DNA of 64,000 bases. Origin: Takakia lepidozioides. Its lineage: Eukaryota > Plantae > Bryophyta. The stretch is taken from positions 60,574,001 to 60,638,000 of the forward strand of contig CM060732.1 of NCBI GenBank assembly GCA_030704615.1. Reading direction: 5' to 3'. Under the pieces are notes generated by a model. The model was not told the DNA's origin. It saw only the letters and a list, made by a program, of their open reading frames with translations, and searched no databases. Within the stretch, counting starts at the first letter, position 1; each line of letters begins with the position of its first letter. Positions 17,190-49,805 of this stretch are shown here, in pieces. Made by a program: the position numbers and the translations under genes.

Positions 17190-18695
17190 GTGTGCCGGGC
17201 TGCGCCGGTGGCCTTCAGGGCTGTGACGGGCTGTGAGGGGCTGTGCCGGTGGCCTTTTGGGGCTGTGATGGGCTGTGAGGGGCTGTCACGAGCTGCGCCA
17301 GTGGCCTTCGGGGTTGTGACGGGCTGTGACGGGTTGCGCCCCTGGCCTTTGGGGCTGTGAAGGGCTGTGAGGGGTTGTGATAGGCTGTGCCCGTGGCCTT
17401 TGGGGCTGTGAGGGGCTGTGAGGGGCTGTGACAGGCCGTGCCTGAGGCCTTTGGGGCTGTGAGGGGCTGTGAGGGGCTGTGATAGGCTGTGCCCGTGGCC
17501 TTTGGGGCTGTGATGGGCTGTGAGGGGCCGTGCCTGAGGCCTCTGGGGCTGTGACGGGTTGTGAGGGGCTGTGACAAGCCGTGCCTGAGGCCTTTGGGGC
17601 TGTGACGGGCTGTGAGGGGCTGTGTCAGGCCGTGCCTGAGGCCTTTGGGGCTGTGAGGGGCTGTGCCGGGCTGCGCCGGTGGCCTTCAGGGGGGCTGTGA
17701 CGGGCTGTGAGGGCCTGTGACGGGCTACGCCGGTGGCCTTGGGGGCTGTGATGGGCTGTGAGGGGCTGTGCCGGTGGCCTTTTGGGGCTGTGATAGGCTG
17801 TGCCCGTGGCTTTTAGGGCTGTGATGGGTTGTGAGGGGCTGTGACAGGCCGTGCCTGAGGCCTTTGGGGCTGTGAGGGGCTGTGACAGGCCGTGCCTGAG
17901 GCCTTTGGGGCTGTGACGGGCTATGAGGGGCTGTGTCAGGCCGTGCCTGAGGCCTTTGGGGCTGTGAGGGGCTGTGGCGAGCTGTGACGGGCTGTGACAG
18001 GTTGTGCCCAGTGGCCTGTGGGGCTGTGACGGGCTGTGCGGGGCTGTGATAGGTTGTGCCCAGTGGCCTGTGGGGTTGTGACGGGCTGTGAGGGGCTGTG
18101 ACAGGCTGTGCCTGTGGCCTTTGGGGCTGTGAGGGGCTGTGACAGGCCGTGCCTGAGGCCTTTGGGGCTGTGACATGCTGTGAGGGGCTGTGTCAGGCCG
18201 TGCCTGAGGCCTTTGGGGCTGTGACATGCTGTGAGGGGCTGTGTCAGGCCGTGCCTGAGGCCTTTGGGGCTGTGAGGGGCTGTGGCGAGCTGTGACGGGC
18301 TGTGACAGGCGGTGCCCAGTGGCCTGTGGGGCTGTGACGGGCTGTGCGGGGCTGTGACAGGCTGTGCCCAGTGGCCTGTGGAGCTGTGAGGGGCTGTGAC
18401 AGGCCGTGCCTGAGGCCTTTGGGGCTGTGACGGGCTGTGAGGGGATGTGACAGGCCATGCCTGAGGCCTTTAGGGCTGTGACGGGCTGTGACGGGCTATG
18501 TCAGGCCGTGCCTGAGGCCTTTGGGGCTGTGAGGGGCTGTGGCGAGCTGTGACGGGCTGTGAGGGGCTGTGACAGGCTGTGCCCAGTGGCCTGTGGGGCT
18601 GTGACGGGCTGTGACAGGCTATGGCGAGCTGTGACGGGCTATGAGGGGCTGTGACAGGCTGTGCCCAGTGGCCTGTGGGACTGTGACGGCTGTGA
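17190..18695. repeat. Element-internal tandem array, ~51-bp unit built from ~10-bp GGGCTGTGA(C/G) sub-motifs
   Basis: Direct reading. The homologous array in copy 2 is at 44465-46452. Confidence 0.92.
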
Positions 18696-19429
18696 CCAGT
18701 GAGCTGTGTGGGCCTGTGCTGGTCTGTGGTGGCCCGTGTTGACCTGTGGAAGGCCTGTGCTCACTCGTGGAGGCACTGGTGGACTGCCTAAGGACTGACA
18801 TGTGGTCTTGAAGGCCGAATTTTGAAGCTCGTGGAGGGCGGTTTGAGGAGTATCTTCATGATATTCCCATGGTCATGCAAGTGAGGGAAGAGAGGAGAGG
18901 AAGAGTGTTGGGATGAGGGCATGCTGGGGTTAGGCATTGTTTTAGCTTCTCTTCCTCGTAGTTTCCACCCTCTCATTAGGCCAAGACCTTTCCGTAGGTG
19001 GAGGCAAGAGTCAGTCCGGGTTTGGGCTGGGGTGTCATGGCAGGAGCAACACCGTGGAGTTGTTTTTGGTGTGGGGGAGTTGTTGTTCTGATTTCTTGTG
19101 TTTGGATCCCCGCCATACCTGCATGCTTGACTGTACGCCATGCTAGTTTTGTGTGGGCGCTTGTTTTTATAGGTGATTGGTCTGGATTTGATCACCGGCC
19201 AGTCCTAGAGCATGTTGTCGATGGTGAGGCTGGGGTGATGACCAGACAGACCATCATTGTTTCTCCTGTGGTGAGGTTGGAGGTGATGACCAGCCATAGG
19301 AGTGCTTGCAGTGGATGCACGTACAGGTGTAGGCTATGTTAGGAACTTAGTATTCCAAACCATAAGCCGCAACAGGTTCTCTACCCGGTTACCTTGTGGA
19401 GAGGAGGTTAGGGACATGTTCATGACCGG

Positions 19430-22400
19430 TTGAGTGTCAACACGGAGGTGCCACTAGTTGCTGGGGACAGTGCCGGTTTGAGCACTAGCGATACTAGTGG
19501 GTACACGAGACGAGGTGTGCGGTTTAGGCCACCTTCACCTCCTGTGTCTTCTACGGAAGGTCTGATTCGGATTGTGAATCAGAGCTTGCAAGAGTTCCAA
19601 CGGAAGCCGACCGAGAGCTTGAGGGAGGCTTTCACTCGCATGAGGCGCTTGATAAATGTAACCCAAGGGGTTACGGAAGCTCAGGCAGTCCAATTCTGGT
19701 ATGGGATATTGGACAAGGAGCTGAGTAGAAGGGTGCAGGATGCAACTCTCCTACAAGCGGCCCAACCTACCTTAGCAAATGTGTTTTTGCTGGCAGAGCG
19801 GATAGAGCTCAACATGGTGGAGGAACGAGTGGTCATGGTGGGATTTGCTAAGGAGACACCACGGGGTAGTGGTACTCCTAACCAACCACTACCTCAACGT
19901 GCTCAAGGCAACAAGGGGGCTCAGGTGAAGCTCAGGGAAGGGCAGAGAGGACCTCAGATGCAGGGGTCTCTCCCTTCATTTGCTGGCCAACAACGGGCGG
20001 ATGTGGTGTGCTGGACATGTGGAGGACCCCATGTCAAGAAGGATTGCCCAGAGGGAGGCAAAGGGCCGGCACATGCACAGCCTGCACAGTTGCAGTGTGG
20101 GCATTGTGGCAAGCACGGGCATGGAGAGGCCCAGTGTTATGGTTTGCATCCTGAGTTGCGCCCAGGCCAGTTCCAAGGGAACAATGGTGGCCGGGGGCGA
20201 GGTGGAGCAGCCCAGAAAGGACGAGGTGGCCAGCCACGAGGTGCAGGCCAAGGGCAAGCTCAACATGGCCAAGGACGCGGAGGTCAGGGGGTTGACCAAG
20301 GCATGGCCAACCGGCTTTAGCAGCTAGAGCAGAGGCTCGCTGCCATGGCTACAGCTCAGGTGGTACCGGCTCTAAGGCCGGATGGTCCACCTCCTGCTCC
20401 TGAGGGAGGAGATATGGGAGGCATGGGATTCATGTGTGGAGCAACACTACCACTAGTGCAGGTGGAGTCTGCTGCAGCCGTGACTCGAGGAGCAGCACAA
20501 GTTCCTGAGCCACGAGGTGCAGAGGTGGCGTTGGATCCACAACGTGGGGAGGCAAGCCATCAGGCTAGGCTTCCTCAGTCATTCACATTGGCGGAGACAG
20601 TGTCGACGCCATCCATGGCACCTAGTTCTCGCCCGACTGTTACCAAGGCAGAGGTTACTATGCCATTGAGGAGAGCTACACGGGTAGCACCACTACCTAG
20701 TGTTGCCAAGGCTACGGCAGCTAGTGTGCTGCTAGGAGCGGCCACATCTGTGTGCCAGGCTCCATTGTTCTCGGCTACCATGATTGCGACGCCGAGGGTA
20801 AGACCAGCTGAGGTGTTCAGGCTGGCAGCTACACTTTGTGAGAGTGGGGAGGTTACTTCATCTTCTGCGGAGATAGTGGGAGGTGTAGTGCCGGAGGGAT
20901 CCTCGGATTTGAGAGTCAAGACTGCCACGGCGGTGCCATGGCAAGCTGCAGCTGCTAGGTTGATGGAGCTGCCAGTTAGGCTAGCCATTGAGCGCGCCAT
21001 GGTGACACCTGGAGTTGTCATGTTAGACAACCAGGATGGCATTTTCTGTTTGAGTGGACCGGCAGGCAAGAGGTACCGGCCACTGCGGGTCTTGTTGGAC
21101 TCGGGAGCTCAGCCATTGATGCTGGGCAAAGCTGCTATTGCAGGCTTGGGCCTCACAGAGGCGGATATGGAGCCTTGTCATTTCCAGATACAGACGTCTC
21201 TGGGAGGATCGGAGCAGGCTCGGGGCATGACACGGCGTGAGTTGGCTATCAGACTATGGCCGGATCACCCTACAGATGGCTCAGTGATGCGAGCCAAGGC
21301 CATTGTGACAGACGCGGTCTCATACGATGTCCTGGTTGGTGGGGCAGTGTTGTACCCCATGGGCTTCACCCTGGATTTTTGGGAGGAGTCAGCTTCCTAT
21401 AGGCCTGCATGGCAGTCAGGGGAGGGCCGGCGTGTGCAGCTCCCTGTGACATTCATTGGAGGAGTTGCGGTTGCCCAGCGAGGCAAGATGCCGATACTAG
21501 CAGCATTCACAGCGGCAGTGAGTTGGCCTAGAGAGTTGCTTGAGGGCAACGCTCATTCAGAGGATGTGCCACCTCCGGGAGAGCAGGATGACATGTATGG
21601 TATGGCGGAGTTGCCTACCATGGTTACTCAGACTCCATTGTGGGGCACGAGCAAGGATTTGCAGCGGGATGCTGATCGACGGGTGCAACAAGCCTGGGTG
21701 GAGGCTTTTGTACCGTCAGGAGAGGAGGAGGGTGCGGGGATTGCACCAGGACCACCTCAGTTGTCGCCATTGGACACCACACCTATTGTGTGTCAGTATC
21801 CGGATGAAGGCATTTGTTTTCTGGACTTGTTTGGCGGGATCAACACCGGATTGGCTGCTGTGTTACAGGCAGATGTACGAGTTCAGCATTACCTGTATGT
21901 GGAGAGGGATGAGACTGCACGACGCATTTCACTTCGCCATATTGCTCAGTTGGTGCAGCGGTACCTTGACTTGTTGTCGGTGTCTGCAATTCGTGGATAT
22001 CAGCAGGCCTTGCCAGCAGACATTTCGTTGTTGGGGGTGCAGGATTTAGAGCGGGTTGGCTCCATTGATCTGGTAGTGGCAGGTTGGCCCTGCCAAGGGC
22101 ATTCATCAGCCGGGCATGGCAATGGATTGCGAGACTCGAGGTCGGGTCTGTTTTGGGAGATGGTGCGGGTTTTGCGCCACTTGCAGCTTCATCAAGCTGT
22201 ATCTCCAGCATACATCTTAGAGAATGTGCCACTGATGGGCGATTCTCGGGCCAAGGTGATGGCCAGTGTGCATCAAGTCCGGTCGTGGCTTGGGTCAGCA
22301 GTGTTGCTAGATGCAGCTACAGTGGGGTCATGGGCTCATCGTCCACGGCTATGGTGGACTAACTTGTGCCACCTGCACTGCTCAAGCGTGCATTTGATGG

Positions 22401-23056
22401 GGTGCAGCGGCCAGCACACCTCATAGTGGATAGCATTTTGGACACAAGGAGGCAGTCTCAACGTGTGAGATGCGATGACCATTCGCCTTTGGCAGTGGTC
22501 AACAGGATGGGTCAACCACGAGCAGCATTACCTACACTGTTCAGCTTTCCAGGATCTCATGCTTTCCGGGATAGTGGACCAGGCCTCCTGTGGGATGCTC
22601 AGTTGCAGCAGTTAGTGGAGCCTAATGCCGACGAGCGAGAGCGGGCTATGGGGTTTTCCACTGGGACCACGGCGGTGCCTTCTCTTTCTGGCATCACGTC
22701 GTCAGGTGTTGGGGCAAGCAATGGATCTCAATTGCTTGACCTGGATTATCAGCTTGGCTATGGTTGAGCAACGTAGAGTGCGGAGTGCACTTCCCTTTAC
22801 GGTCTCTCTGCCTACCGAGACGGTACAGGCAGTGAGTGGGGGCGAGCCGGTGAGGACCACAGGGCGTATTCATCCATGGCACACGTGGGAGGTGCTCGAG
22901 GTTCAGAGGGAGTTGGCAGCCAAGGCGGCTGTGATAGATGAGGTTGGGGATTTTTCTCGGGTTGAGGAGGTCCTCAATGATGAAATGATGGGGTCGGATG
23001 AGGTCTTGTCATTGACTGAGCAGGCAGGGAGTACTGCTCAAGAGGTTGCAGCATAG
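19430..23056 (+). pseudogene. Copy 1 ORF1: Gag (internally deleted) - 2 Zn knuckles - aspartic protease - C5 cytosine methyltransferase; disrupted
   Basis: CWTCGGPHVKKDC, CGHCGKHGHGEAQC, VLLDSGAQ, FLDLFGG, AGWPCQGHS, YILENV, AHRPRLWWTN, ERERAMGF, RRQVLGQAMD. Stop at 20318, frameshifts at ~22365 and ~22690. Ends at TAG 23054-23056. Confidence 0.9.
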
Positions 23057-26000
23057 CAACCACGGGACGTGTCCTCTATCTCTAAGCCCACTGGACTTAA
23101 GGTTGCAGTTACGGAGGACAATTGGGAGCCTGACATTGGACCCATTGTCACCGGAGGAGAGAGACGACGTATACGGCGGTTCCTGAGGGCTTACAGGAAT
23201 TGCTTTGCCTTCAGTTTGAAGGACTTGGGAGCACTGAAGGGTCAAGAGATCCGTATTGAGTTGGCCACTGACACGCCAATCTTTCGGAGACCCTATAGAT
23301 ACAGTGACATGGAGAGGTCTTTGATTTAGATGAGGACTCAAGATCTCTGGGAGGCAGGTTTGGTGGAGCTCTCTGGTGGAGAGTATGCTTCAGCCATAGT
23401 GATGCCAGCCAAGAAGGATGTCTATGGCAATTGGACGGAGAGACGTATGTGCGGTGATTACCGGCCTGTAAATCGTCAGACCAAGTCCGATAAGTATGCC
23501 ATGCCAACACCAGAGGAGATCTTTGATGCCATCGGGCATGCTAAGGCCTTTAGCACTTTGGATTTACGATCCGAATATCACCAGTTGTCAATCAAGGAGG
23601 CGGACAAGCAGAAGACGGCATTCTGGGGGATCAATGAGCACGGCAAGGATTGCCTATATCAGTGGCGGTTCTTACCATTTGGGCTTAAGAATGCTCTTGC
23701 AGAGTTTCAGAGAGTCATGGATAGGATTCTAGCAGGGGTGGACTTTGCTCGGTGCTACATAGATGACATCATCATCTTTAGTGTTACGATGGAGGAGCAT
23801 GAGAGACACCTTCAGGTGGTATTGGAGCGCTTGAGAGCGCACGGATTGAAGTTGCATCCGGGGAAGTGCAAGTTTTTCCACAACCAGATTGAGTATCTGG
23901 GTCACATGATATATCCTGGAGGATTGGGGTACAGCAGACTAAGGTAGAGGCCATTGCACAAATTCCACGCCCCACGGATGTGAGCCGAGTTTGAGCTTTC
24001 ATGGGGTTGGCAAACTATTATAGACAGTTTGTCAAGGGATTTAGTACCATTGCAAAGGCTCTAACCAAGCTGACCAAGGTGGACCAGGAGTGGCAGTGGA
24101 AAGATGAGCAGGAACGAGCTTTTCAAGAGCTCAAGGCGAGGTTGACCTCGGCGCCTATCCTGAGACGACCTATCAAGGGGCGTCCCTTTCAGCCGCATAC
24201 GGATTGGAGCATGCTGGGGCTTGGAGCGGTGTTCACACAGGTGGATGATGAGGGAAGAAAGTTTGTAGTGGCTTATGCTAGCCACTCGAACAACGCTGCA
24301 GAGGCTAAGTACAGCTCATATGAGGGAGAGTGCTTAGCTGCAGTGTGGGCCGTGACACACTTCAGGTGCTATCTATACGGCAATCTTTTCACTCTTGTCA
24401 CGGATCACCAGCCACTCAAGTGGTTGATGGAGTCAGATAAGCTTACGGGGAAGCTTGCACGGTGGGCACTCATACTCCAGGAGTATGACTTTTAGATTGT
24501 GCATCAACCGGGTTTGGTCAATCGGGATGCGGATGGATTGAGTCGCAATCCATGCATGAGCCAGCAGGATGACACTGGAGCTCGGTGGCATGGTGAGACA
24601 GACGAGGAGATGGTGCCGGGATGGCACGAATCTGTATTTTTGTGTATCTTGGCATCGGGAGGTCAGGTTGGACCTACAACAGGGATGACTGTAGACGGAG
24701 TGTCTGAGGACTCTGAGGCTAGTGATGAGCCAGGTAGTGCCAGAGATATACATGAGGATTCGGCTGTGTTGGACTACCTCCGCACGGGAGACACGGCAGC
24801 CACTGTGACTGTCAGGGAGAGGGATCGGATCCTGCAACGAGCCAAGAGGTTCAAGTGGGAGGGGATACACCTACTTTGAGTGTGGGAGGATGGTCAGGTG
24901 AGGATTGTGCCTCACCCCACACAGCGTGCACGGTTAGTGCGGCATGCCCATGAGGAGTTGGGGCATTTTGGAGTGCGACGCACTCACAGTTTACTGCAAG
25001 GGCAGTATTGGTGGCGTGGTATGCATACAGAGGTGCAACAGTTCGTGGCTAGTGCATGGTGTGTGATAGGGTGGCGTGCTTCATTCAACACCCCTACACC
25101 ACAGTTGCATCCTTTACCAATCATGGGATTGGGCTACAGGTGGAGTCTTGACTTCGCAGGACCGTTGCCACTGACTGTGCGCCACCACAGATATGTGTTG
25201 GTGATGGTGGAGCACTTTTCTAAGTGGATTGAGTTGGTTCCATTGCCTGACAAGGCTAGTGAGGGGGCTGCGTATGCATTCTTGGATCGTGTGCTTAGCC
25301 GATTTGGTGCTCCAGCTGAGGTACTCACGGACCAAGGGAGAGAGTTCTTGGGGGAGTTTCAGGCTTTGTGTGATAAAGCCTTGATAGACCACCGCACCAC
25401 TTCTCGGGATCATCCTGAGGCCGATGGCTTAGCAGAGAGAGTTGTTCAGACGGTGAAGAGGGGTTTGCGCAAGTATGGCTTGCAGAAAGGACACCTAGGA
25501 GATTGGGATCTTCAGGTTCCTTGCTTAGCCATGGGCTACAGGTTCAGCAAACAAGCATCACTTGCCTCCTTCTCACCATATTTCCTTCTCTTTGGCCGAG
25601 AGCCGGATTTGCCTGCAGCCATTCGTAGGGACACTGCTCAAGTCCTTAACCTTGACGATCCGGACGTGTGGGTACGTGCATGTGATCAGCGTGCAGAGTT
25701 GTTCAAGAAAGTCATGCCCATGGCTTTTGAGAACCTTGCCATTGCACAGCACCGTGATACGTTGAGGTATGCCACTATACGTGGTGGAGGATATCATCCT
25801 GGGGTTCGGAGGTTTAGCCTTGGTGACTATGTTTATTTGCAGCAGACTACTCCTACGACTCTGGATGTTACTGCAGGGCGTGTTATTCTGAGGGTTCGAG
25901 AGGTGTTGCCCTCAGGGGTCCTGATCTTGGAGGGTCGGGATGGCATGACTTGGAAGGACCATGTGCGTAATTGTGCGTCATGTCACCTTCCCAATGTCGA

Positions 26001-26189
26001 TGGCAGAGTTGACCCAAACTGGCAGTGGTACCTGCAGGTTTGAGGTGCATGCTCTGTGGGTCTGCCAAAGGGGCAGCCACCATGCTGGTGTGTGATCGAT
26101 GCTCAAGGGGTTGGCATATGGGATGCTTGACACCACCTCTTGAGAAGGTTCCTGACGGACATTGGTTGTGTCCACACTGCTTGGGATAG
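23057..26189 (+). pseudogene. Copy 1 pol: RT - RNase H - DDE integrase - PHD finger; disrupted
   Basis: RMCGDYRPVN, LPFGLKNA, YIDD, TDWS, YEGECLA, HEELGHFG, SLDFAG..TDQG..AER, and a PHD motif CMLC..CDRC..WHMGC..WLCPHC after a frameshift at ~26020. Stops at 23327, 23992, 24493 and 24877. Confidence 0.92.
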
Positions 26190-26607
26190 TGGCAATGGAC
26201 ATGACTGGAGGCAGCTAACAAGACATGGGAGGCCAAGCTCATAGGAGTCAATACATGAGATTCCAAGCTCAAGTTCACAGGTTGCAAGATGGCGACTAAC
26301 GATGGGGCAACTCTTGCACCCGGCCTCTTGATCTATCGAGTTTGAGTGTAGTAGGGATAGTGGTGGAGGACTTAGTGAGGCTATGGTCACTATCACATCT
26401 TGTGGCTACCTGGACTTAGAGGGACCTAAGCACCAGCTAGGGGGGCGATTGTGTGGACTAGTGACTGCCATAGTGGGCAGCATAGTGGCAGCCTAGTGAC
26501 TGACTTGTAGCCTAGTGGTTGGACTAGTGGCTGGACTAGTGGTATACTAGTGTGTGGTGTGCACATGTGTTGTGTGGTTTTGGACAGCGATATGTATGCG
26601 CACAACA

Positions 26608-36256: not shown

Positions 36257-36963
36257 TGTCGTGCGCATACATATCGCTACACAACTACATCGCTGTCCAA
36301 AACCACACAACACATGTGCACACCACACACTAGTATACTACTAGTCCACACTAGTCCAGCCACTAGTCCAACCACTAGGCTACAACTAGTCAGTCACTAG
36401 GCTGCCATTATGCTGCCTACTATGGCAGTCACTAGTCCACACAATGATAAAGAGGAAGAATACAAGCACAAGCTCATGCGAGCTCACAAAGCTGAAGCAT
36501 AAACTTATGCATATATAACCTCATCACTCAAATACAAGTCAAGCCAAGTGCACCCCACGCCATGGGGAATCCACACTACGGCGCCATAGCTAGGCGCGGT
36601 GAGGCTCAACTCGAGAAAGATGAGCCTCATGCGCTTGCCGTGAAGATAACCACTCCAGGGCCTAAATCTGCCTTGACCCCTGGATTGACACTTGGGCCAA
36701 TCCCAAATGTCAATATGTAAAAGCTAGCTATTTCCTAGCTAGTTTCACACTAGTGGTAAAATAACTTGACAGCTGTCGTGCGCATACATATCGCTACACA
36801 ACTACATCGCTGTCCAAAACCACACAACACATGTACACACCACACACTAGTATACTACTAGTCCACCACTAGTCCAGCCACTAGTCCAACCACTAGGCTA
36901 CAACTAGTCAGTCACTAGGCTGCCATTATGCTACCCACTATGGCAGTCACTAGTCCACACAAT
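36257..36963 (-). repeat. 3' repeat block of copy 2: B1 (36962-36774), GC, A2 (36771-36445), B2 (36444-36257)
   Basis: A2 matches A1 (47984-48310) with one difference seen in 327 bp. B1 and B2 (~189 bp) differ at about 4 positions. Confidence 0.93.
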
Positions 36964-37221
36964 CGCCCCCCTAGCTGGTGCTTAGGTCCCTCTAAGTCCA
37001 GGTAGCCACAAGATGTGATAGTGACCATAGCCTCACTAAGTCCTCCACCATTATCCCTACTACACTCAAACTCGATAGATCAAGAGGCCGGGTGCAAGAG
37101 TTGCCCCATCATTAGGCGCCATCTTGCAACCTGTGAACTTGAGCTTGGGATCTCATGTATTGACTCCTATGAGCTTGGCCTCCCATGTCTTGTTAGCTGC
37201 CTCCAGTCATGTCCACTGCCA

Positions 37222-40200
37222 CTATCCCAAGCAGTGTGGACACAACCAATCTCCGTCAGGAACCTTCTCAAGAGGTGGTGTCAAGCATCCCATATGCCAA
37301 CCCCTTGAGCATCGATCACACACCAGCATGGTGGCTGCCCCTTTGGCAGACCCACAAAGCATGCACCTCAAACCTGCAGGTACCACTGCCAAGTTTGGGT
37401 CAACTCTGCCATCGACATTGGGAAGGTGACATGGCGCACAATTACGCACATGGTCCTTCCAAGTCATGCCATCCCGACCCTCCAAGATCAGGACCCCTGA
37501 GGGCAACACCTCTCGAACCCTCAGAATAACACGCCCTGCAGTAACATCCAGAGTCGTAGGAGCAGTCTGCTGCAAATAAACATAGTCACCAGGGCTAAAC
37601 CTCCGAACCCCAGGACGATATCCTCCACCACGTATAGTGGCATACCTCAACGTATCACGGTGTTGTGCAATGGCAAGGTTCTCAAAAGCCATGGGCATGA
37701 CTTTCTTGAACAACTCTGCACGCTGATCACATGCACGTACCCACACGTCCGGATCGTCAAGGTTAAGGACTTGAGCAGTGTCCCTACGAATGGCTGCAGG
37801 CAAATCCGGCTCCCGGCCAAAGAGAAGGAAATATGGTGAGAAGGAGGCAAGTGATGCTTGTTTGCTGAACCTGTAGCCCATGGCTAACCAAGGAACCTGA
37901 AGATCGCAATCTCCTAGGTGTCCCTTCTGCAAGCCATACTTGCGCAAACCCCTCTTCACCGTCTGAACAACTCTCTCTGCTAAGCCATCGGCCTCAGGAT
38001 GATCCCGAGAAGTGGTGCGGTGGTCTATCAAGGCTTTATCACACAAAGCCTGAAACTCCCCCAAGAACTCTCTCCCTTGGTCCGTGAGTACCTCAGCTGG
38101 AGCACCAAATGGCTAAGCACACGATCCAAGAATGCATACGCAGCCCCCTCACTAGCCTTGTCAGGCAATGGAACCAACTCAATCCACTTGGAGAAGTGCT
38201 CCACCATCACCAACACATATCTGTGGTGGCGCACAGTCAGTGGCAACGGTCCTGCGAAGTCAAGACTCCATCTGTAGCCCAATCCCATGATAGGTAAAGG
38301 ATGCAACTGTGGTGTAGGGGCGTTAAACGAAGCACGCACCCTGTCACACACCATGCACCTAGCCACAAACTGTTGCACCTCTGTATGCATACCACGCCAC
38401 CAATACTGCCCCTGCAGTAAACTGTGAGTGCGTCGCACTCCAAAATGCCCCAACTCCTCATGGGCATGCCGCACTAACCGTGCACGCTGTGTGGGGTGAG
38501 GCACAATCCTCACCCGACCACCCTCCCACACTCGAAGTAGGTGTATCCCCTCCCACTTGAACCTCTTGGCTCGTTGTAGGATCCGATCCCTCTCCCTGGC
38601 AGTCACAATGGCTGCCGTGTCTCCCGTGCGGAGGTAGTCCAACACAGCTGAATCCTCATGTATATCTCTGGCACCACCTAGCTCATCACTAGCCTCAGGG
38701 TCCTCAGACACTCCGTCTACAGTCATCCCTGTTGTAGGTCCAATCTGACCTCCCGATGCCAAGATACACAAAAATGCAGATGCGTGCCATCCCGGCACCA
38801 TCTCCTCGTCCGTCTCACCATGCCACCGAGCTCCAGTGTCATCCTGCTGGCTCATGCATGGATTGCGACTCAATCCATCCGCATCCCGATTGACCAAACC
38901 CGGTCGATGCACAACCTGAAAGTCATACTCCTGGAGTATAAGTGCCCACCGTGCAAGCTTCCCCGTAAGCTTGTCTGACTCCATCAACCACTTGAGTGGC
39001 TGGTGATCCGTGACAAGGGTGAAAAGATTGCCGTATAGATAGCACCTGAAGTGTGCCACGGCCCACACTGCAGCTAAGCACTCTCCCTCATATGAGCTGT
39101 ACTTAGCCTCTGCAGCATTGTTCGAGCGGCAAGCGTAAGCCACTACGAACTCTCTTCCCTCATCATCCACCTGTGTGAGCACCGCTCCAAGCCCCAGCAT
39201 GCTCCAATCCGTATGCAGCTGAAAGGGACGCCCCCTGATAGGTCGTCTCAAGATAGGCGCCGAGGTCAACCTCGCCTTGAGCTCTTGAAAAGCTCGTTCC
39301 TGCTCATCTTCCCACTGCCACTCCTGGTCCACCTTGGTCAGCTTGGTTAGAGCCTTTGCAATGGTACTAAATCCCTTGACAAACCGTCTATAATAGTTTG
39401 CCAACCCCATGAAAGCTCGAACTCGGCTCACATCCGTGGGGCATGGAATTTGTGCAATGGCCTCTACCTTAGTCTGCTGTACCCCCAATCCTCCAGGATA
39501 TATCATGTGACCCAGATACTCAATCTGGTTGTGGAAAAACTTGCACTTCCCCGGATGCAACTTCAATCCGTGCGCTCTCAAGCGCTCCAATACCACCTGA
39601 AGGTGTCTCTCATGCTCCTCCATCGTAACACTAAAGATGATGATGTCATCTATGTAGCACCGAGCAAAGTCCACCCCTGCTAGAATCCTATCCATGACTC
39701 TCTGAAACTCTGCAGGAGCATTCTTAAGCCCAAATGGTAAGAACCGCCACTGATATAGGCAATCCTTGCCGTGCTCATTGATCCCCCAGAATGCCGTCTT
39801 CTGCTTGTCCGCCTCCTTGATTGGCAACTGGCGATATCCGGATCGTAAATCCAAAGTGCTAAAGGCCTTAGCATGCCCGATGGCATCAAAGATCTCCTCT
39901 GGTGTTGGCATGGCATACTTATCGGACTTGGTCTGACGATTTACAGGCCGGTAATCACCGCACATACGTCTCTCCGTCCAATTGCCATAGACATCCTTCT
40001 TGGCTGGCATCACTGTGGCTGAAGCATACTCTCCACCAGAGAGCTCCACCAAACCTGCCTCCCAGAGATCTTGAGTCCTCATCTGAATCAAAGACCTCTC
40101 CATGTCACTGTATCTATAGGGTCTCCGAAAGATTGGCGTGTCAGTGGCCAACTCAATACGGATCTCTTGACCCTTCAGTGCTCCCAAGTCCTTCAAACTG

Positions 40201-40355
40201 AAGGCAAAGCAATTCCTGTAAGCCCTCAGGAACCGCCGTATACGTCGTCTCTCTCCTCCGGTGACAATGGGTCCAATGTCAGGCTCCCAATTGTCCTCCG
40301 TAACTACAACCTTAAGTCCAGTGGGCTTAGAGGTAGAGGACGCGTCCCATGGTTG
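37222..40355 (-). pseudogene. Copy 2 pol: RT - RNase H - integrase (HHCC, DDE) - PHD finger; one frameshift at ~38110
   Basis: 722-aa and 280-aa ORFs with YIDD, TDWS, HAHEELGH..CMVC, SLDFAG/TDQG/AER and CMLCGSAKGAATMLVCDRCSRGWHMGCLTPPLEKVPDGDWLCPHC. Confidence 0.93.
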
Positions 40356-43300
40356 CTATGCTGCAACCTCTTGAGCAGTACTCCCTACCTGCTCAGTCAA
40401 TGACAAGGCCTCATCCTGCCCCATCATCTCATCCTTGAGGACCTCCTCAACCCGAGAAGAATCCCCAACCTCATCCATCACAGCCGCCTTGGCTGCCAAC
40501 TCCCTCTAACCTCGAGCACCTCCCACGTGTGCCATGGATGCATGCACCCCGTGGTCCTCATATGCTCGCCCCCACTCACTGCCTGTACCGTCTCGGTAGG
40601 CAGAGAGACCATTGAGGGAAGTGTATTCCGCACTCTGCGTTGCTCAGCTAGAGCCAAGCTGATAATCCAGGTCAAGCAATTGAGATCCATTGCTTGCCCC
40701 AACACTTGACGACGTGATGCCTCAGAAAGAGACGACACCGCCGTGGTACCAGTGGTAAAACCCATTGCCCACTCACGCTCGTCAGCATTAGGCTCCACTA
40801 ACTGCTGCAACTGAGCATCCCACAGGAGGCCAGGTCCACTATCCCGGAAAGCATGCGATCCTGGGAAGCTGAGCAGTGTAGGTAATGCTGCTCGTGGTTG
40901 ACCCACCTTGTTGACCACTGCCAAAGGCGAACGGTCATCGTGTCTCACACGTTGAGACTGCCTCCCTGTGTCCAGAATGTTATCCACTGTGAGATGTGCT
41001 GGCCGCTGCACCCCATCAAATGCACGCTTGAGCAGTGCGGGTGGCATCATGTTAGTCCACCATAGCCGTGGACGATGAGCCCGTGACCCCACTGTAGCTG
41101 CATCTAGCAACACTGCTGACCCAAGCCACGACCGGACTTGATGCACACTGGCCATCACCCTGGCCCGAGAATCGCCCATCAGTGGCACATTCTCCAAGAT
41201 GTATGCTGGAGATACAGCTTGATGAAGCTGCAAGTGGCGCAAAACCCGCACCATCTCCCAAAACAGACCCGACCTCGAGTCTCGCAATCCATTGCCATGC
41301 CCGGCTGATGAATGCCCTTGGCAGGGCCAACCTGCCACTACCAGATCAATGGAGCCAACCCGCTCCAAATCCTGCGCCCCCAGCAACGAAATGTCTGCTG
41401 GCAAGGCCTGCTGATATCCACGAATTGCAGACACCGACAACAACTCAGGGTACCGCTGCACCAACTGAGCAACATGGCGAAGTGAAACGCGTCGTGCAGT
41501 CTCATCCCTCTCCACATATAGGTAACGCCGAACTCGTACACCTGCCTGTAACACAGCAGCCAATCCGGTGCTGATCCCGCCAAACAAGTCCAGAAGACAA
41601 ATGCCTTCATCCGGAGACTGCCACACAATAGGTGTGGTGTCCAATGGAGACAATTGAGGTGGTCCTGGTGCAATCCCCACACTCTCCTCCTCTCCTGACG
41701 GTACAAAAGCCTCACCCAGGCTTGTTGCACCCGTCGATCAGCATCCCGCTGCAAATCCTTGCTCGTGCCCCACAATGGAGTCTGAGCAACCATGGTAGGC
41801 AACTCCGCCATACCATACATGTCATCCTGCTCTCCCGGAGGTGGTACATCCTCTGAATGAGCATTGCCCTCAAGCAACTCTCTAGGCCAACTCACTGCCG
41901 CTGTGAATGCTGCTAGTGTCGGCATCTTGCCTCGCTGGGCAACCGCAACTCCTCCTATGAACGTCACAGGGAGCTGCACACGCCGGCCCTCCCCTGACTG
42001 CCATGCAGGCCTATAGGAAGCTGACTCCTCCCAAAAATCCAGGGTGAAGCCCATGGGGTACAACACTGCCCCACCAACCAGGACATCGTATGAGACTGCG
42101 TCTGTCACAATGGCCTTGGCTCGCATCACTGAGCCATCTGTAGGGTGATCCGGCCGTAGTCTGATAGCCAACTCATGCCGTGTCATGCCCCGAGCCTGCT
42201 CCGATCCTCCCAGAGACGTCTGTATCTGGAAAGGACAAGGCTCCATATCTGCCTCCGTGAGGCCCAAGCCTGCAATAGCAGCTCTGCCCAGCATCAGTGG
42301 CTGAGCTCCCGAGTCCAACAAGACTCGCAGTGGCCGGTACCTCTTGCCTGCCGGTCCACTCAAACAGAAAATGCCATCCTGGTTGTCTAACATGACAACT
42401 CCAGGTGTCACCATGGCGCGCTCAATTGCTGGCCTAGCTGGCAGCTCCATCAACCTGGCAGCTGCAGCTTGCCATGGCGCCGCCGTGGCAGTCTTGACCC
42501 TCAAATCCGAGGATCCCTCCGGCACTACACCTCCCACTATCTCCGCAGAAGATGAAGTAACCTCCCCACTCTCACAGAGTGTAGCTGCCAGCCTGAACAC
42601 CTCAGCTGGTCTTATCCCCGGCGTCGCAATCATGGTAGCCGAGAACAATGGAGCCTGGCACACAGATGTGGCCGCTCCTAACAGCACACTAGCTGCCGTA
42701 GCCTTGGCAACACTAGGTAGTGGTGCTGCCCGTGTAGCTCTCCCCAATGGCATAGTAACCTCCGCCTCGGTAATAGTCGGGCAAGAACTAGGTGCCATGG
42801 GTGGCGTCGACACTGTCTCCGCCAATGTGAATGACTGAGGAAGCCTAGCCTGACGGCTTGCCTCCCCACGCTGTGGATCCAACTCCACCTCTGCACCTCG
42901 TGGCTCAGGAACTCGTGCTGCTCCTCGAGTCACGGTTGCAGCAGACTCCACCTGCACTAGTGGTAGTGCTGCTCCACACATGAATCCCATGCCTCCCATA
43001 TCTCCTCCCTCAGGAGCAGGAGGTGGACCATCCGGCCTTAGAGCCGGTACCACCTGAGCTGTAGCCATGGCAGCGAGCCTCTGCTCTAGCTGCTGAAGCC
43101 GGTTGGCCATGCCTTGGTCAACACCCTGACCTCCGCGTCCTTGGCCACGTTGAGCTTGCCCTTGGCCTGCACCTCGTGGCTGGCCACCTCGTCCTCTCTG
43201 GGCTGCTCCACCTCGCCCCCGGCCACCATTGTTCCCTTGGAACTGGCCTGGGCGCAACTCAGGATGCAAACTATAACACTGGGCCTCTCCATGCCCGTGC

Positions 43301-44319
43301 TTGCCACAATGCCCACACTGCAACTGTGCAGGCTGTGCATGTGCCGACCCTTTGCCTCCCTCTGGGCAATCCTTCTTGACATGGGGTCCTCCACATGTCC
43401 AGCACACCACATCCGCCCGTTGTTGGCCAGCAAATGAAGGGAGAGACCCCTGCATTTGAGGTCCTCTCTGCCCTTCCCTGAGCTTCACCTGAGCCCCCTT
43501 GTTGCCTTGAGCACGTTGAGGTAGTTGTTGGCTAGGAGCACCACTACCCCGTGGTGTCTCCTTAGCAAATCCCACCATGACCACTCATTCCTCCACCATG
43601 TTGAGCTCTATCCGCTCTGCCAGCAAAAACACATTTGCTAAGGTGGGTTGGGCCGCTTGTAGGAGAGTTGCATCCCGCACCCTTCTCCTCAGCTCCTTGT
43701 CCAATATCCCATACCAGAATTGGACTGCCTGAGCTTCCGTAACCCCTTGGGTTACATTTATCAAGCGCCTCATGCGAGTGAAAGCCTCCCTCAAGCTCTC
43801 GGTCGGCTTCCGTTGGAACTCTTGCAAGCTCCGCAACTTCTCTGTCCTCACCCCTTGGTAGTTCCCTCTCAACTCTTCGAAGAACTCCACAACAGGGTTG
43901 AAGGCAGGCACGGGTGCTAGTGCTGGTGCGGTAGTGGCTTGGGTGGACGTCGTAGCTACTGTACCACCAGTCCCACTGCTGCTTGCTGAAGCTGCCGGTG
44001 CAGCGGCAGGTGTAGCCACTGCCCTCGTGGCTCTAGTGCCCCTAGTGATGGAGACATAGTCGGGTGACCAGTACATCCTCCACTCCTCGATCTCAACCTC
44101 ATGCCCCCGCCTGAACTCATGGTAATCATCCATAGGCGGCCCCTCAAGGTGCTGAAACAGCCCTTTCCATGCCATGAACGGCGTAAATAGTTGTGGATTG
44201 CGCATTTGCTGCAAATCACACCAACTATCAAACTCTTGGATAAAATCATCCAACTCAATGGTGCCCACCGCCCCAGAGTACCTTCGTGGCCCCTTGGTAG
44301 CTCCATACATCTCCTCCAT
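40356..44319 (-). pseudogene. Copy 2 ORF1: Gag - 2 Zn knuckles - RGG-rich - aspartic protease - C5 DNA methyltransferase; one nonsense and two frameshift lesions
   Basis: Gag from MEEMYG..ELDDFIQEFDSW (the true start may lie upstream). TGA at 43585 (CGA in copy 1), frameshifts at ~41713 and ~40508. Ends at TAG 40358-40356. Confidence 0.9.
40657..41602 (-). CDS. C5 cytosine DNA methyltransferase domain (DNMT3/Dcm-like), uninterrupted in copy 2
   Basis: Motif I LLDLFGGISTG, II YVERD, IV DLVVAGWPCQGHS, VI YILENV, VIII RAHRPRLWWTN, IX-X EREWAMGFTTGTT..SRRQVLGQAMD, in canonical order within the 400-aa ORF 40478-41680. Confidence 0.93.
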
Positions 44320-44464
44320 TGTGTCCCACAATAATGGCAAAGAAACAACTTGCACCGCCGGTATGAGCCCTCCTGATTTACAATCCGAATCAGAACCTTC
44401 CGTGGAAGACACAGGAGGTGAAGGTGGCCTAAACCGCACACCTCGTCTCGTGTACCCACTAGTA

Positions 44465-46452
44465 GGCCACTGGGCACAGCCTGTCACAGCCCCTCACAGC
44501 TCGTCACAGCCTCAAAGGCCTCAGGCACAGCCTGTCACAGCCCCTCACAGCCGTCACAGCCCCAAAGGCCTCAGGCGCGGCCTGTCACAGCCCCTCACAA
44601 CCCGTCATAGCCCCAAAGGCCATGGGCACGGCCTGTCACAGCCCCTCACAGCCCGTCACAGTCTCAAAGGCCTCAGGCACGGCCTGTCACAGCCCATCAC
44701 AGCCCCAAAGGCCTCAGGCATGGCCTGTCACAGCCCGTCACAGCCCGTCACAGCCCCAAAGGCCTCAGGCGCGGCCTGACACAGCCCCTCACAGCCCGTC
44801 ACAGCCCCAAAGGCCATGGGCACGGCCTGTCACAGCCCCTCACAGCCCATCACAGCCTCAAAGGCCTTAGGCACGGCCTGTCACAGCCCCTCACAGCCCG
44901 TCACAGCCCCAAAGGCCATGGGCACGGCCTGTCACAGCCCCTCACAGCCCGTCACAGCCTCAAAGGCCTCAGGCACGGCCTGTCACAGCCCCTCACAGCC
45001 CGTCACAGCCCCAAAGGCCATGGGCACGGCTGTCACAGCCCCTCACAGCCCCTCACAGCCTCAAAGGCCTCAGGCACGGCCTGTCACAGCCCATCACAAC
45101 CCCAAAGGCCTCAGGCACGGCCTATCACAGCCCCTCACAGCCCGTCACAGCCCCAAAGGCCTCAGGCGCGGCCTGTCACAGCCCCTCACAGCCCGTCACA
45201 GCCCCAAAGGCCATGCGCACGGCCTGTCACAGCCCCTCACAGCCCGTCACAGCCTCAAAGGCCTCAGGCACGGCCTGTCACAGCCCCTCACAGCCCCTCA
45301 CAGCCCCAAAGGCCATGGGCACGGCCTGTCACAGCCCCTCACAGCCCGTCACAGCCTCAAAGGCCTCAGGCAGGGCCTGTCACAGCCCCTCACAGCCCCT
45401 CATAGCCCCAAAGGCCTCAGGCAGGGCCTGTCACAGCCCCTCACAGCCCGTCACAGCCCCAAAGGCCTCAGGCACGGCCTGTCACAGCCCCTCACAGCCC
45501 GTCACAGCCCCAAAGGCCTCAGGCACGGCCTGTCACAGCCCCTCTCAGCCCGTCACAGCCCCAAAGGCCTCGGGCACGGCCTGTCACAGCCCCTCTCAGC
45601 CCGTCACAGCCGCAAAGGCCTCGGGCACGGCCTGTCACAGCCCCTCACAGCCCGTCACAGCCGCAAAGGCCTCGGGCACGGCCTGTCACAGCCCCTCACA
45701 GCCCGTCACAGCCGCAAAGGCCTCAGGCACGGCCTGTCACAGCCCCTCACAGCCCATCACAGCCCCAAAGGCCATGGGCACAGCCTATCATAGCCTGTCA
45801 CAGCCCCACAGGCCTCAGGGCACAGCCTGTCACAGCCCCGCACAGCCCGTCACAGCCCCAAAGGCCACTGGGCACAGCCTGTCACAGCCTGACACAGCCC
45901 GTCACAGCCCCACAGGGCACAGGGCACAGCCTGTCACAGCCCATCACAGCCCATCACAGCCTCAAAGGCCTCAGGCACGGCCTGTCACAGCCCCTCACAG
46001 CCCATCACAGCCCCAAAGGCCATGGGCACAGCCTGTCATAGCCCGTCACAGCCCCACAGGCCTCAGGGCACAGCCTGTCACAGCCCCGCACAGCCCGTCA
46101 CAGCCCCAAAAGGCCACTGGGCACAGCCCGTCACAGCCCCAAAGGCCACTGGGCACAGCCTGTCACAGCCTGACACAGCCCGTCACAGCCCCTCACAGCC
46201 CATCACAGCCCCAAAGGCCATGGGCACAGCCTGTCACAGCCCGTCACAGCCCCACAGGCCTCAGGGCACAGCCTGTCACAGCCCCGCACAGCCCGTCACA
46301 GCCCCAAAGGCCACTGGGCACAGCCTGTCATAGCCTGACACAGCCCGTCACAGCCCCACAGGGCACAGGGCACAGCCGGTCACAGCTTGCCACAGCCTGT
46401 CACAGCCCGTCACAGCCCGTCACAGCTTGCCACAGCCTGTCACAGCCCCACA
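44465..46452. repeat. Element-internal tandem array, 51-bp unit GGCCTGTCACAGCCCCTCACAGCCCGTCACAGCCCCAAAGGCCTCAGGCAC
   Basis: Direct reading. About 2.0 kb here versus ~1.5 kb in copy 1. Confidence 0.93.
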
Positions 46453-47983
46453 CATGGCCGCTCTGGCAGTTTAGCCATTTCTCCAAGGGGTTTAGCCACG
46501 CCAAGCTAGGGTTTGTGTCTCTTGGACTCTAGGCTTCTTTCCACCGAGCTATGGTGGCTGTGAGGAAATCAGCAAGGTATCCTTGCTCTTTCGGCTCCCA
46601 CACACCACCATAGTAGCCCTAAGCCATGAGGTGGTTGCCACAAACCAAGCCTTCTTTCTCACTTAGCCTACCCAAACACGCCACTAAACTCAATGGCAAA
46701 CAACCAAGCCCTGCTGGTTCCCAGCCCTTGTGAGCACTCATTCAAGCACTCTCCTTGGCCATAGCATCTGTCTTAGAGCCTCTTCCAGCCCCCTACACCT
46801 GCTGCTTCAAGAGTTGCGCTCCCTTCAAGCTTGAAGTTGAAACCCCAACTCACATAGGCCCTACAAGTGCTTTTCTTTCACTCCAAGTGGAAACCAGCCC
46901 TAGACCTTCCGTTCTAGCTCTCTAAAGCTTGAAAACAAGAGCCTCAATGGGCTGAAGGCATGCTCCACACATGCCCCACTCTCACCATAAAAGAATCAGC
47001 TCCTTTGCTTCATTTCTTGCACCACAAACCTGAAAATACAAGCTTCAGCATGCTGAAAGCATGCTCCACATGCCCTACAGGGAAACCAGCCCCTTCCTTC
47101 CTTTCTTGCACTCCCACACCTGAAAGTGCAAGCCTTCACCAGGCTGATAGCATGCTCCACACATGCATTGCCCTCACATAAGGGAAGTCAGCCCTTCCCT
47201 CTTCCTTGCTTGTCCTCCAAGCTTGAAGATGGAAGCTTCAATGAGCTGAATACATGCTCCACACATGCAACCTCTTCACACAAGAGATATCAGCCCCCTA
47301 TCTTGGCTCCTTGGCTCCTTGATGCTCTCTAAGACAAGACTAAGAACTCCATAGCCTTTGCCAAGCTCCTGAAACCCTAAGGCTTACATTTCCAGCCACA
47401 AGACACTTCTCTTGTGGTGCAAGAGCTCTTCTTCCAAGCTCTGTAACCCTAGGTGCACATTCCATGGCCTTGCCGCACCTCTTAGCTCCTGTTCCAGCCC
47501 TGCTCTCGCCATGACAAGAGCCCTCTCAATGCTGAAGCTCGAGATTGAAACCCAATCTCACCATACTCCACAAAGTGCACTGATTTGCCCCAAGCCAAAT
47601 CAGCCCTTTCGCTTGGTCTTGCAATCCTTCACACAATGACAGCTCGCATTCCCAAGTCCAGTTCTCAGCTTTGCCACCAAAGCCACTATAACCTGCTCTT
47701 GACTGGTCCTCTTCCCAATCGTGCTTGCTCATGCATGTACACAATCTGAAACCATCAAGGTGCTCTGGAATTACCTACAGTATGGTGCTTTCATCTCTGA
47801 AGCTGAAGATCGAATGCCAAGGTTTACCACCTCGTAACCCACATCGCCTCCGCTTCTAACAACCAAGAGCTCCACGGTGCTCCTTGCATAACAACTTGGT
47901 TTCTCTCATTCTCAAGCAAAAACCACAAGTGCTACAACTAACTCGTATCTAGCACTCATAGATACGAGCTCATCTTTCTCGAG

Positions 47984-48310
47984 TGATAAAGAGGAAGAAT
48001 ACAAGCACAAGCTCATGCGAGCTCACAAAGCTGAAGCATAAACTCATGCATATATAACCTCATCACTCAAATACAAGTCAAGCCAAGTGCACCCCACGCC
48101 ATGGGGAATCCACACTACGGCGCCATAGCTAGGCGCGGTGAGGCTCAACTCGAGAAAGATGAGCCTCATGCGCTTGCCGTGAAGATAACCACTCCAGGGC
48201 CTAAATCTGCCTTGACCCCTGGATTGACACTTGGGCCAATCCCAAATGTCAATATGTAAAAGCTAGCTATTTCCTAGCTAGTTTCACACTAGTGGTAAAA
48301 TAACTTGACA
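47984..48310 (-). repeat. A1 terminal repeat (327 bp) of copy 2; homologous to 15336-15662 in copy 1
   Basis: Near-identical to 36445-36771. Begins TGTCAAG and ends TTTATCA on the element strand. Confidence 0.93.
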
Positions 48311-48519
48311 CCTCAGTCATAACTTTCAGTCGTGTAGTCATATTTGTTATGACTACATCACCAAACCCTGCATCACCCTCAGTGACGACCATGACTTCGC
48401 ACTTATCACTCCGTAGTCATGGTAGAACTGACTTCGTGTTTGTCACTGCAGAGTGAGGTAGTCATAACAACACTTATCACTGCTATTCATAGTCATAAAA
48501 ACGTTAATCTGTACTAGTG
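48311..48519. mobile_element. CACTA terminus (CACTAGTACAGATT on the minus strand); its subterminal GTAGTCAT repeats continue at ~36040-36256
   Basis: AATCTGTACTAGTG ends at 48519. Dense AGTCAT/ATGACT motifs flank copy 2 on both sides. Confidence 0.65.
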
Positions 48520-49329
48520 TTGGCCCTGAGATGCATATTGAATTTTGTAAGTTAGCTCATTGCTCATTGATAAGTAGGGTTGGGGGTGTTTGCTGGAACA
48601 ATTCTAGGCTGTCATTGTCAGCTGCTAGCAGGAAGGCAAGGATGTATGCATGATTTTGTGTAGAGGCATAGATAGCTGAAGGAGCAGGGATAGAGTGTGG
48701 GCCTAGATTCGTCCAAGAGGGCCGGATTTCAAGCTCCATTATTTCAGTGTCATCCATTCAGCCAGGGATTTCTTGGTGACATTGCCAAGGCTTTACTCGC
48801 CACACGATGCTTGTAAAGCTTCCTTAGCTTGAATGCTGATTATGCTTGAATTATTAGGTTTGTAAAGCCAGTTTTGAAATTTTCATAGTAATCAGCTCTC
48901 TTGAAAATCTGTAGGTTGCAAGCCATTTACAGCGGGCCGTGGGTGGACTAGAAGACAACCATTGAAAATCTTGGTGCGTTAATACCAATGGAGAGCAGTG
49001 TAAGCTTCATATGCCCTTTTGGTGCTAGTTATCTTCATGTATGGTATTGTTGAACACCAACAATCTTTTGGTGAGATTATGTCTTGGTGCACGTGTCTGA
49101 TAAAGAAAAACGGTAATGTTTGTTCTGAAACTTGAAGGCGTGAAATGATTCAACACAGCAAGAGCATTACGCGTGTCACAGTACAAGTTGTAAGAAAGCG
49201 AGAGATACATAGTTATACAGTCAAACAGACAACTATCAGTTTCTGTGGAATCTCTTGCCAATGGCAGGATGGGTTGGGAACAGCCAAGTCAAGAGGTGAA
49301 TGCCTGTCAAATTACCACATGTCCTTCTG

Positions 49330-49800
49330 AACACTGCCCCTGCCCTGGTGGACATGTATGCCAAATGTGGGTGCATTGAGGATGCCAAGGGAGTGTTCAA
49401 CACTGTGGCTGAACGAGATGTGGTGTCGTGGAGTGCGATGCTTGCAGGGTATGCACAGCTGGGGTGCGGGATGGAGGCTCCAACCTTTGAGCAAATGATG
49501 GGGGAAGAGGTGAAGGCCGCCAACATAAGGTTTGTGTGCCTTTGCAGTGCGTCTGGCAGCCCTGGAAAAGAGCAAAGAGATCCCTGGTGACATCATCAAA
49601 TCTGCAATTGTACCAGATGTCATCTTGAACATTGCTCTGGTGGCCATGTATGCTAAATGTGAGAGCATTGAGGATGCCAAGGGAGTGTTCAACACTATGG
49701 CTGAACTAGATGTGGTGTCGTGGAATGCGATGCTTGCAGGGTGTGCAGAGCAGGAGCGAGGGATGGGGCTTTGGACACCTGAAAACAAATGATGGGGAAA
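49330..49800 (+). pseudogene. PLS-class pentatricopeptide repeat (PPR) gene fragment, frameshifted
   Basis: ALVDMYAKCGCIEDAKGVFNTVAERDVVSWSAMLAGYAQLG and ALVAMYAKCESIEDAKGVFNTMAELDVVSWNAMLAG in different frames. Confidence 0.88.
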
Positions 49801-49805
49801 GGGGT

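Follow-up and report, generated by a model that had tools for sequence, protein, structure and literature searches.

The window, as the whole 64,000-nucleotide stretch of DNA is called here, contains two copies of a Ty3/gypsy retrotransposon that probably starts reverse transcription by self-priming of the Tf1 kind, with a primer that is probably 12-13 nt long and begins at about position 48160, rather than a primer of 17 nt. Analysis of the two copies and their relatives directly revealed a complement between the PBS position and the element's own repeat A, the covariation of this complement, the repeat order, a palindrome at which the insertions end and the target duplications.

Two copies of the element in the window

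Copy 2 runs on the minus strand from 48310 to 36257 in the order A1-PBS-internal-PPT-B1-A2-B2, and copy 1 lies on the plus strand (15336..26607) in the short form A-PBS-internal-PPT-B. Features of each copy are given below on the strand of that copy; the tandem array and the palindrome have no strand. The copies are about 97% identical across the 7 kb coding region, and both are broken by stops and frame changes. The domain order in copy 2 is gag-protease-DNA methyltransferase-RT-RNase H-integrase-PHD (Pfam, with the protease motif recognised by eye). The gag and protease region (41338..44493) contains an in-frame stop at 43585-43587; programmed read-through of this stop was considered and rejected, as arginine is found there in all 10 of the relative loci that span the position. 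A C5 cytosine methyltransferase domain (40478..41737; PF00145, E 5e-13) lies within pol, and its catalytic motifs are recognisable by eye both here and at 22000-22426 on the plus strand. RT, RNase H and the start of the DDE integrase follow at 38028..40355 (Pfam). The remaining integrase and a C-terminal PHD finger (PF00628, E 4e-11) occupy 37222..38112, in a frame that differs from that of the preceding ORF.

No chromodomain was matched by Pfam at the integrase C-terminus, where the PHD finger is found instead. Identity as a tyrosine-recombinase element was also considered and rejected, since the DDE integrase residues are present and no tyrosine recombinase was matched by Pfam in 15 element ORFs and the further ORFs scanned.

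The 5' internal region carries a 51-bp tandem array that differs in length between copy 2 (44473..46408, 39 units) and copy 1 (17311-18695, 27 units). The array yields long repetitive opposite-strand ORFs that have no Pfam match, and no array of this type was found among the self-repeats of the relatives in families F1 and F2.

Copy 1 is nested in a decayed minus-strand LINE (13644-15331 and 26612-27053), identified by a zf-RVT match at 13647-14153 and by RT-like text on the far side of the copy. The flanks of copy 2 (33481-36256 and 48311-50533) contain imperfect repeats of about 510 bp and short subterminal-type repeats that resemble a CACTA or similar DNA transposon, with PPR-like coding text near 49300-49800. 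A gag fragment from a related family (31166-31941, minus strand; about 80% DNA identity) has no A repeat directly upstream.

Related loci and their placement

The nearest named proteins are from the liverworts Calypogeia, Riccia and Marchantia (73-77% identity), followed by Klebsormidium and Closterium; green algae were also matched, and the Marchantia relatives show a protein identity of 64-77%. The host is taken to be a bryophyte. A profile scan provided 79 metagenome loci, drawn from the best 80 of 322 confirmed matches, and relatives were present at 18 genome-bin loci; a search of viral contigs found nothing. In a quick RT-RNase H tree of 58 rows, built without Tf1 or Tcn1 references, the window element and loci L016, L026, L002, L080, L060 and L027 form one PHD clade (SH-aLRT 99), separate from the chromodomain-bearing gypsy rows. 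Three Klebsormidium nitens proteins (P0158, P0172 and P0192), which are putative KnitGypsy-Dnmt3 copies, form a clade with the window RT (SH-aLRT 96).

Outside the main PHD clade, the gypsy protein P0114 combines a PHD finger with a domain of the adenine-methyltransferase type (PF05869). The methyltransferase is placed after RT, not before it, in the algal-type loci L027, L032, L035 and L041. Loci L080, L081, L082 and L089, among others, are plant or algal retrotransposon contigs inside bacterial genome bins, a likely contamination.

Permuted LTR and repeat order

In copy 2, A1 (47984..48310, 327 bp) starts with TGTCA and forms the left end of the insertion; it differs from A2 (36445..36771) at one position in 327. 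The PBS position (47968..47983) follows A1 directly. At the element's opposite end the polypurine tract (PPT; 36964..36976) abuts B1 (36774..36963), the upstream part of the LTR, which ends in GACA, and B2 (36257..36445) is joined to the end of A2 with one A in common and forms the right end of the insertion. The corresponding parts of copy 1 are A (15336-15662), PBS (15663-15678), PPT (26435-26447) and B (26448-26607). Both inserted copies start with TGTC, end with ACA and are flanked by 4-bp target duplications, at 48311..48314 and 36253-36256 for copy 2 and at 15332-15335 and 26608-26611 for copy 1.

PPT and PBS mark the boundaries of an LTR. With the PPT before B and the PBS after A, the true LTR is thus B+A (B1A2, 36963-36445); this LTR is permuted, and A supplies no more than its downstream part. 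The insertion ends lie within this LTR, at the palindrome GACA-GC-TGTC that spans the B1|A2 joint (36768..36777) and is the predicted integrase cutting site.

The same arrangement was found in relatives. The long order PPT-B-A-B is present at 17 independent 3' ends including copy 2, namely in F1 (L003, L010, L016, L030, L044/L048 and L077), in F2 (L052, L055, L057, L058, L060, L066, L070, L076 and L078) and, apart from these lists, in L081. A further pattern, PPT-B-flank, occurs at 11 independent 3' ends including copy 1; both ends are known in four of the 11 (copy 1, L004, L012 and L017), and these are A-internal-B with a 4-bp duplication (three of four bases in L012). Duplications of 4 bp at TGTC..GACA ends are also present in L016, L044/L048 and L060, and the palindrome after PPT and B recurs even in GC-rich algal-type loci such as L027, L036, L040, L041, L082 and L090. 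The mirror form, A-B-A-internal-B, was found at none of 10 independent 5' ends and in none of five long copies with both ends, a small sample. The collapsed or circular contigs L002, L014, L027, L028 and L080 contribute A and PBS only and were excluded from the repeat-order counts, and the rearranged L056 was likewise excluded from counts. In L036 (15159-15232) two palindrome copies lie 64 nt apart, the first of them extended to about 22 bp.

The joint between A and B differs in its uniformity. The nine F2 joints fall into four forms (three blunt, four lacking the shared 2-nt overlap and two others), and the joint of L003 contains a 19-nt insert. Joints are uniform in six of seven F1 cases and, as far as the contigs show, in the window family, where no indel row is present among the rows shown for the joint at 36445.

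Complementarity between the PBS position and repeat A

The initial annotation had described a 17-nt complement between the end of A and a site inside A, and had found no TGG start after A. Both observations were confirmed. In copy 2, 47968-47984 is the exact reverse complement of the inner site, 48148..48164 (17/17), and in copy 1 the inner site 15482-15498 matches 15662-15678 at 16 of 17 positions; the sequence after A starts with letters other than TGG. The outer arm pairs as described, with the refinement that 16 of its 17 bases lie outside A (47968-47983) and the 17th (47984) is the last base of A. The hairpin noted at the inner site could also be located (48140..48167, with arms 48160-48167 and 48140-48147); it is predicted only in RNA that includes upstream sequence.

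Seven perfect inverted repeats in the window reach 13 nt or more when the arms are separated by 50-600 nt, and the 17-nt pair is the longest of them. In an anchored test, which takes the longest perfect complement within A of the sequence starting at A's last base, copy 2 scored 17 and copy 1 scored 13, and none of 2000 dinucleotide shuffles of A reached either value (means 4.1, maxima 10 and 9). A chance inverted repeat in a decayed element would draw on the remaining six such repeats (13-15 nt) and on the broken state of both copies; the anchoring at the end of A, the shuffle result and the recurrence of the pairing with other letters in five families largely refute this explanation, which retains a negligible probability. 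The variant 47971 C>G is carried by copy 1 and accounts for 20% of the contig depth in X1 and 41% in X5; it breaks pair 14 only, which leaves the core intact, and no change of its partner occurs among the rows shown (40 of 59).

Covariation in related families

The initial annotation had proposed a search for compensatory changes across copies. Our analysis revealed that five related families keep the pairing with changed letters. Among 32 candidate A starts examined for the complement between PBS and inner site, a perfect complement of at least 10 nt was found in both window copies, L015/L016 (17), L026 (10), L012 (10), L002 (16), L080 (13), L060 (10) and L027/L028 (12). The decayed copies L004, L017, L024, L025, L048 and L068 have no perfect complement of at least 9 nt at the site, and L044 matches a second site only. 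Among algal-type loci with enough sequence, the complement is clear in L027/L028 only, ambiguous in L014 and L082, and nothing convincing occurs at the site in L041 and L090. Starts are cut off in L020, L036, L040, L045 and L083, L081 is a 3' end, L032, L079 and L089 are probably not true A starts, and L085, L094 and L095 were excluded as lying outside the clade or lacking PHD.

The anchored test gave 17 for L016, 16 for L002, 13 for L080, 12 for L027 and 15 for the L060 family (inner site from L076), with 0/2000 shuffles in each case; these five families were picked since each already showed a candidate complement. Eight rows from three lineages were aligned, and at the 11 positions compared 97.7% of cells pair; both sides have changed in 6 of these 11 alignable pairs, and in slid-partner controls pairing drops to 35-50%. 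The number of pairs with both sides changed was reached by 21 of 500 shuffles; the pair count was reached by none of 500, which is not to be read as a probability because the alignment rows are related. Variants of the F1 PBS differ mostly beyond base 11, and the conserved part of the pairing is the 11-13 nt adjoining the end of A.

Only this first helix was counted, as MAFFT misaligned a second-helix motif (48076..48084 in copy 2) across families. The motif is kept in four families and is predicted to pair with the bases at and after the primer end; it is suggestive only, since its changes are one-sided and the helix formed in some folds only. In F1 (L016:1933-1943) a second primer-like copy, also complementary to the PBS, lies about 90 nt downstream of the first.

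These results bear on priming by a host tRNA or tRNA half, with the inner site as an incidental or decoy complement. Although tRNAs prime most plant LTR elements according to passages of PMC6317226, the PBS position has no TGG start, Rfam gave no match at E up to 1 over 47700-48500, and the PBS letters differ among six families with the inner site changing in step. A PBS that covaries with its own LTR argues against a tRNA, whose sequence would not follow the LTR, and we regard this explanation as very improbable. ARAGORN found no tRNAs in the window and one in 24 loci, too few for comparison with the PBS.

Predicted RNA start and folding

The distance from TATA box to transcription start is about 30 nt. 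A TATA-like box starts 40-41 nt before the last base of the primer in L002, L080, L016 and L027 (TATAGC in L080, a pattern added after it had been seen) and 43 nt before the primer end in the L060 family, F2 (counted by hand). At this position TATAAA is present in 11 of the 17 F1 rows and in all 12 F2 rows. Taken with the distance of about 30 nt, this spacing would have the RNA begin at a pyrimidine-purine step that precedes the primer end by 11-13 nt, and in L080, L027 and F2 the perfect complement begins exactly at that step. The window equivalent is the C-A step at 48161/48160; the upstream TATA is degenerate here (48182..48188), roughly where relatives have TATAAA or TATAAT, and about 2 nt closer (38 nt).

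The initial annotation had proposed self-priming and named a start at or near 48164 as support for it. Covariation and the TATA spacing of the relatives support self-priming and shift the predicted primer to 12-13 nt and its start to about 48160. As the conserved part of the pairing consists of the 11-13 nt adjoining the end of A, the RNA start is more likely to be 48160 than 48164; the predicted range is 48158-48166. The predicted self-primer core is accordingly placed at 48149-48160, with its start taken from the relatives. A complement of 16-17 nt in copy 2, L016 and L002 indicates that primer length is not fixed by the pairing itself.

Folding closes the 5' end onto the PBS in all eight predicted 5' RNAs (z -6.4 for copy 2) and permits the RNA to start roughly 10-18 nt ahead of the primer end. 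For copy 1 and L080, pairing is predicted only when the RNA starts at most 17-18 nt from the primer end, and with longer 5' ends the fold switches to the local hairpin. Copy 2, L016 and L027 retain the predicted pairing when the 5' end is longer, so a short start is not required by folding in these three. Rare letters at 48168-48169 weaken the hairpin in copy 2, and 98-99% of the X1 depth differs at these positions. The second helix also involves the final 3-4 bases of the primer in the fold of copy 2.

The pairing might instead be a conserved RNA structure that serves packaging, dimerisation or strand transfer, with the PBS-position sequence pairing with the inner site of A2, far away at the 3' end, the transcript starting elsewhere and another primer in use. 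The only good TATA match in the window A is a TATATA downstream of the inner site (48051..48056), which is a rival promoter candidate confined to the window family, and strong structure characterises the 5' domain regardless. Against this, the five relative A repeats scanned have no downstream TATATA and do have a TATA-like box at the self-priming distance; the inner site in the A2 context folds into the local hairpin in three of four sequences; and wherever the end of A is defined in a family, the complement begins exactly there. A purely structural role is therefore unlikely.

Contigs from X12 and X17, runs guessed to be RNA and belonging to two studies, hint no more than weakly at a poly(A) region inside A: five of the eight listed contigs that reach this part of A stop at 36551-36588, without a loose end, 33-70 nt after the predicted start, at four places and mostly in a diverged subfamily. 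In X1, A is covered at about twice the contig depth of the internal region; as depth is not a copy number, this ratio was left out of the argument.

Proposed mechanism

The PBS is complementary to a site inside the element's own repeat A, and we consider it likely that RT is primed in the manner of Tf1, with the RNA of the element itself supplying the primer as its first 12-13 bases. Transcription would begin at about 48160 within A1. Folding predicts that the RNA then pairs through its 5' end with 47972-47983, closing the rest of A into a multi-helix domain. By analogy with Tf1, the element RNase H would cut after base 12 or 13, and RT would extend the primer into the end of A. The A2 site near the 3' end of the RNA would sit in its local hairpin and offer no competition. 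Standard LTR replication, with its limits set by PBS and PPT, would then give a linear cDNA of the form BA-internal-BA.

The integration step is less certain. In this step integrase would ignore the cDNA ends and cut the B/A palindrome after CA on both strands, and repair would join the two natural cDNA ends to give A-internal-B-A-B; the short form A-internal-B would follow if one repeat unit were lost or both palindromes were used. That the internal palindrome is cut and the natural ends are joined we hold to be slightly better than an even proposition. Cutting after CA on both strands would leave ends with the geometry of processed retroviral ends, and a reading of the palindrome as two att sites with a common 2-nt overhang, within the first LTR, is somewhat favoured. 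We also lean, with modest confidence, towards host repair of the natural ends, in which joining would give the long form and collapse the short form.

If self-priming yields a normal linear cDNA, the A2|B2 joint is where the two ends of that cDNA have met, without an intervening PBS or PPT, and the variable F2 joints and the L003 insert are as expected from end-joining. From a symmetric 2-LTR circle, A-B-A-internal-B and A-internal-B-A-B would be expected in equal numbers. The absence of the mirror form from the small sample leans towards cutting of the first LTR before the ends are joined.

For PAT/Ngaro tyrosine-recombinase elements a circle route has been proposed that starts from RNA of the type that runs from A1 through B2. 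Self-priming could likewise be true here and A-internal-B-A-B simply be inherited, with RNA from A1 through B2 copied to a circle and no fresh end-joining. The uniform A|B joint of the window family and the absence of A-B-A-internal-B among the 10 5' ends are compatible with this, as is the same repeat order described for PAT/Ngaro in passages of PMC4157794. On the other hand, PPT and PBS flank the A|B joint exactly, like the ends of a linear cDNA, the joints are variable in F2 and L003, and there is the weak hint of transcripts that end inside A. Inheritance of the order is thus a possible but rather improbable account, and joining of the natural ends of a self-primed cDNA is preferred. On the preferred reading, a green-lineage gypsy clade extending from algae to bryophytes has uncoupled the ends made by RT from the ends used in integration, a conclusion that we place just on the probable side.

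Since self-priming fixes the start point of RT, the split repeats can be read as a permuted ordinary LTR. How split-repeat retroelements prime, and whether an internal palindrome can be the normal substrate of a DDE integrase, become testable questions in model bryophytes with close relatives of the element. If the reading is true, the split repeats familiar from tyrosine-recombinase elements can also be reached by way of a DDE integrase, and the element would model how such repeats arise. LTR finders that require two whole terminal repeats would pass over this high-copy class of elements.

Comparison with known systems

Self-priming has been shown experimentally mainly in fission yeast. Its probable appearance here, with compensating changes, is in a separate PHD/methyltransferase gypsy clade. 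In Tf1, pairing with the PBS involves the first 11 bases, and the RNase H cut falls between bases 11 and 12, as stated in passages of a review (PMC7175516) and of PMC4600332. The window element resembles Tf1 in its predicted primer of about a dozen bases and in the presence of an RNase H domain, and it shares with Tf1/Tf2 of S. pombe and the Tf1/sushi group (Tj1, the Tcn1 of moss and club-moss, and the copia element TAR) a PBS that is complementary to its own LTR. Self-priming is predicted in 12% of plant LTR elements, mainly Tcn1 and TAR, in the relevant part of PMC6317226, and for SM-Tcn1 neither kind of PBS was found according to the passage concerned in PMC2864245. Unlike the Tf1/sushi elements, the window element has a PHD finger instead of a chromodomain and a methyltransferase in pol, and its insertion ends at an internal palindrome. 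It also differs from Tf1/sushi and Tcn1 in lacking two whole LTRs at its ends, having A-internal-B-A-B or A-internal-B instead.

Split direct repeats of the order A1-B1-A2-B2 are described for PAT and Ngaro in the portion of PMC4157794 that treats them, and PAT/Ngaro/TOC and the window element have split direct repeats in common. The window element differs from these elements in having a DDE integrase, a protease, PPT, PBS and 4-bp duplications, and no tyrosine recombinase.

Cleavage of retroviral 2-LTR junctions provides a likeness for the proposed integration step, in that a DDE integrase cuts a palindrome of two head-to-head att ends. HIV-1 integrase is able to cut a palindromic LTR-LTR junction (PMC1905944), and integrase cleavage of the 2-LTR circle junction is also reported for foamy virus (PMC1180852). 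In the retroviral case the palindrome arises by the joining of cDNA ends, as a side route, whereas the LTR of the window element carries it built in, at its middle, and every inserted end seen falls at it.

The closest counterpart is KnitGypsy-Dnmt3 of Klebsormidium nitens. As far as the passages of PMC5890265 go, this element and the window element share the gypsy order PR-RT-RH-INT with a DNMT inside pol and a DIRS-like repeat order; the legend to Fig. 4c of that paper calls the KnitGypsy-Dnmt3 repeats 'the same as that of a DIRS retrotransposon'. The passages concerned give no primer site, palindrome, target duplication or mechanism. Nor was a report of self-priming, an internal palindrome or a mechanism found for the KnitGypsy-Dnmt3-type clade in the literature covered, which included few subscription journals and no supplements. 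Self-priming is thus already known, and the repeat order has been noted once, in the Klebsormidium relative; a link between the two was not found in the same literature. The window element differs from KnitGypsy-Dnmt3 in grouping with liverwort and moss-type copies. Taken together, the priming of the element probably works like that of Tf1, but by its domains and its ends the element is not a Tf1/Tcn1 chromovirus; it belongs with KnitGypsy-Dnmt3.
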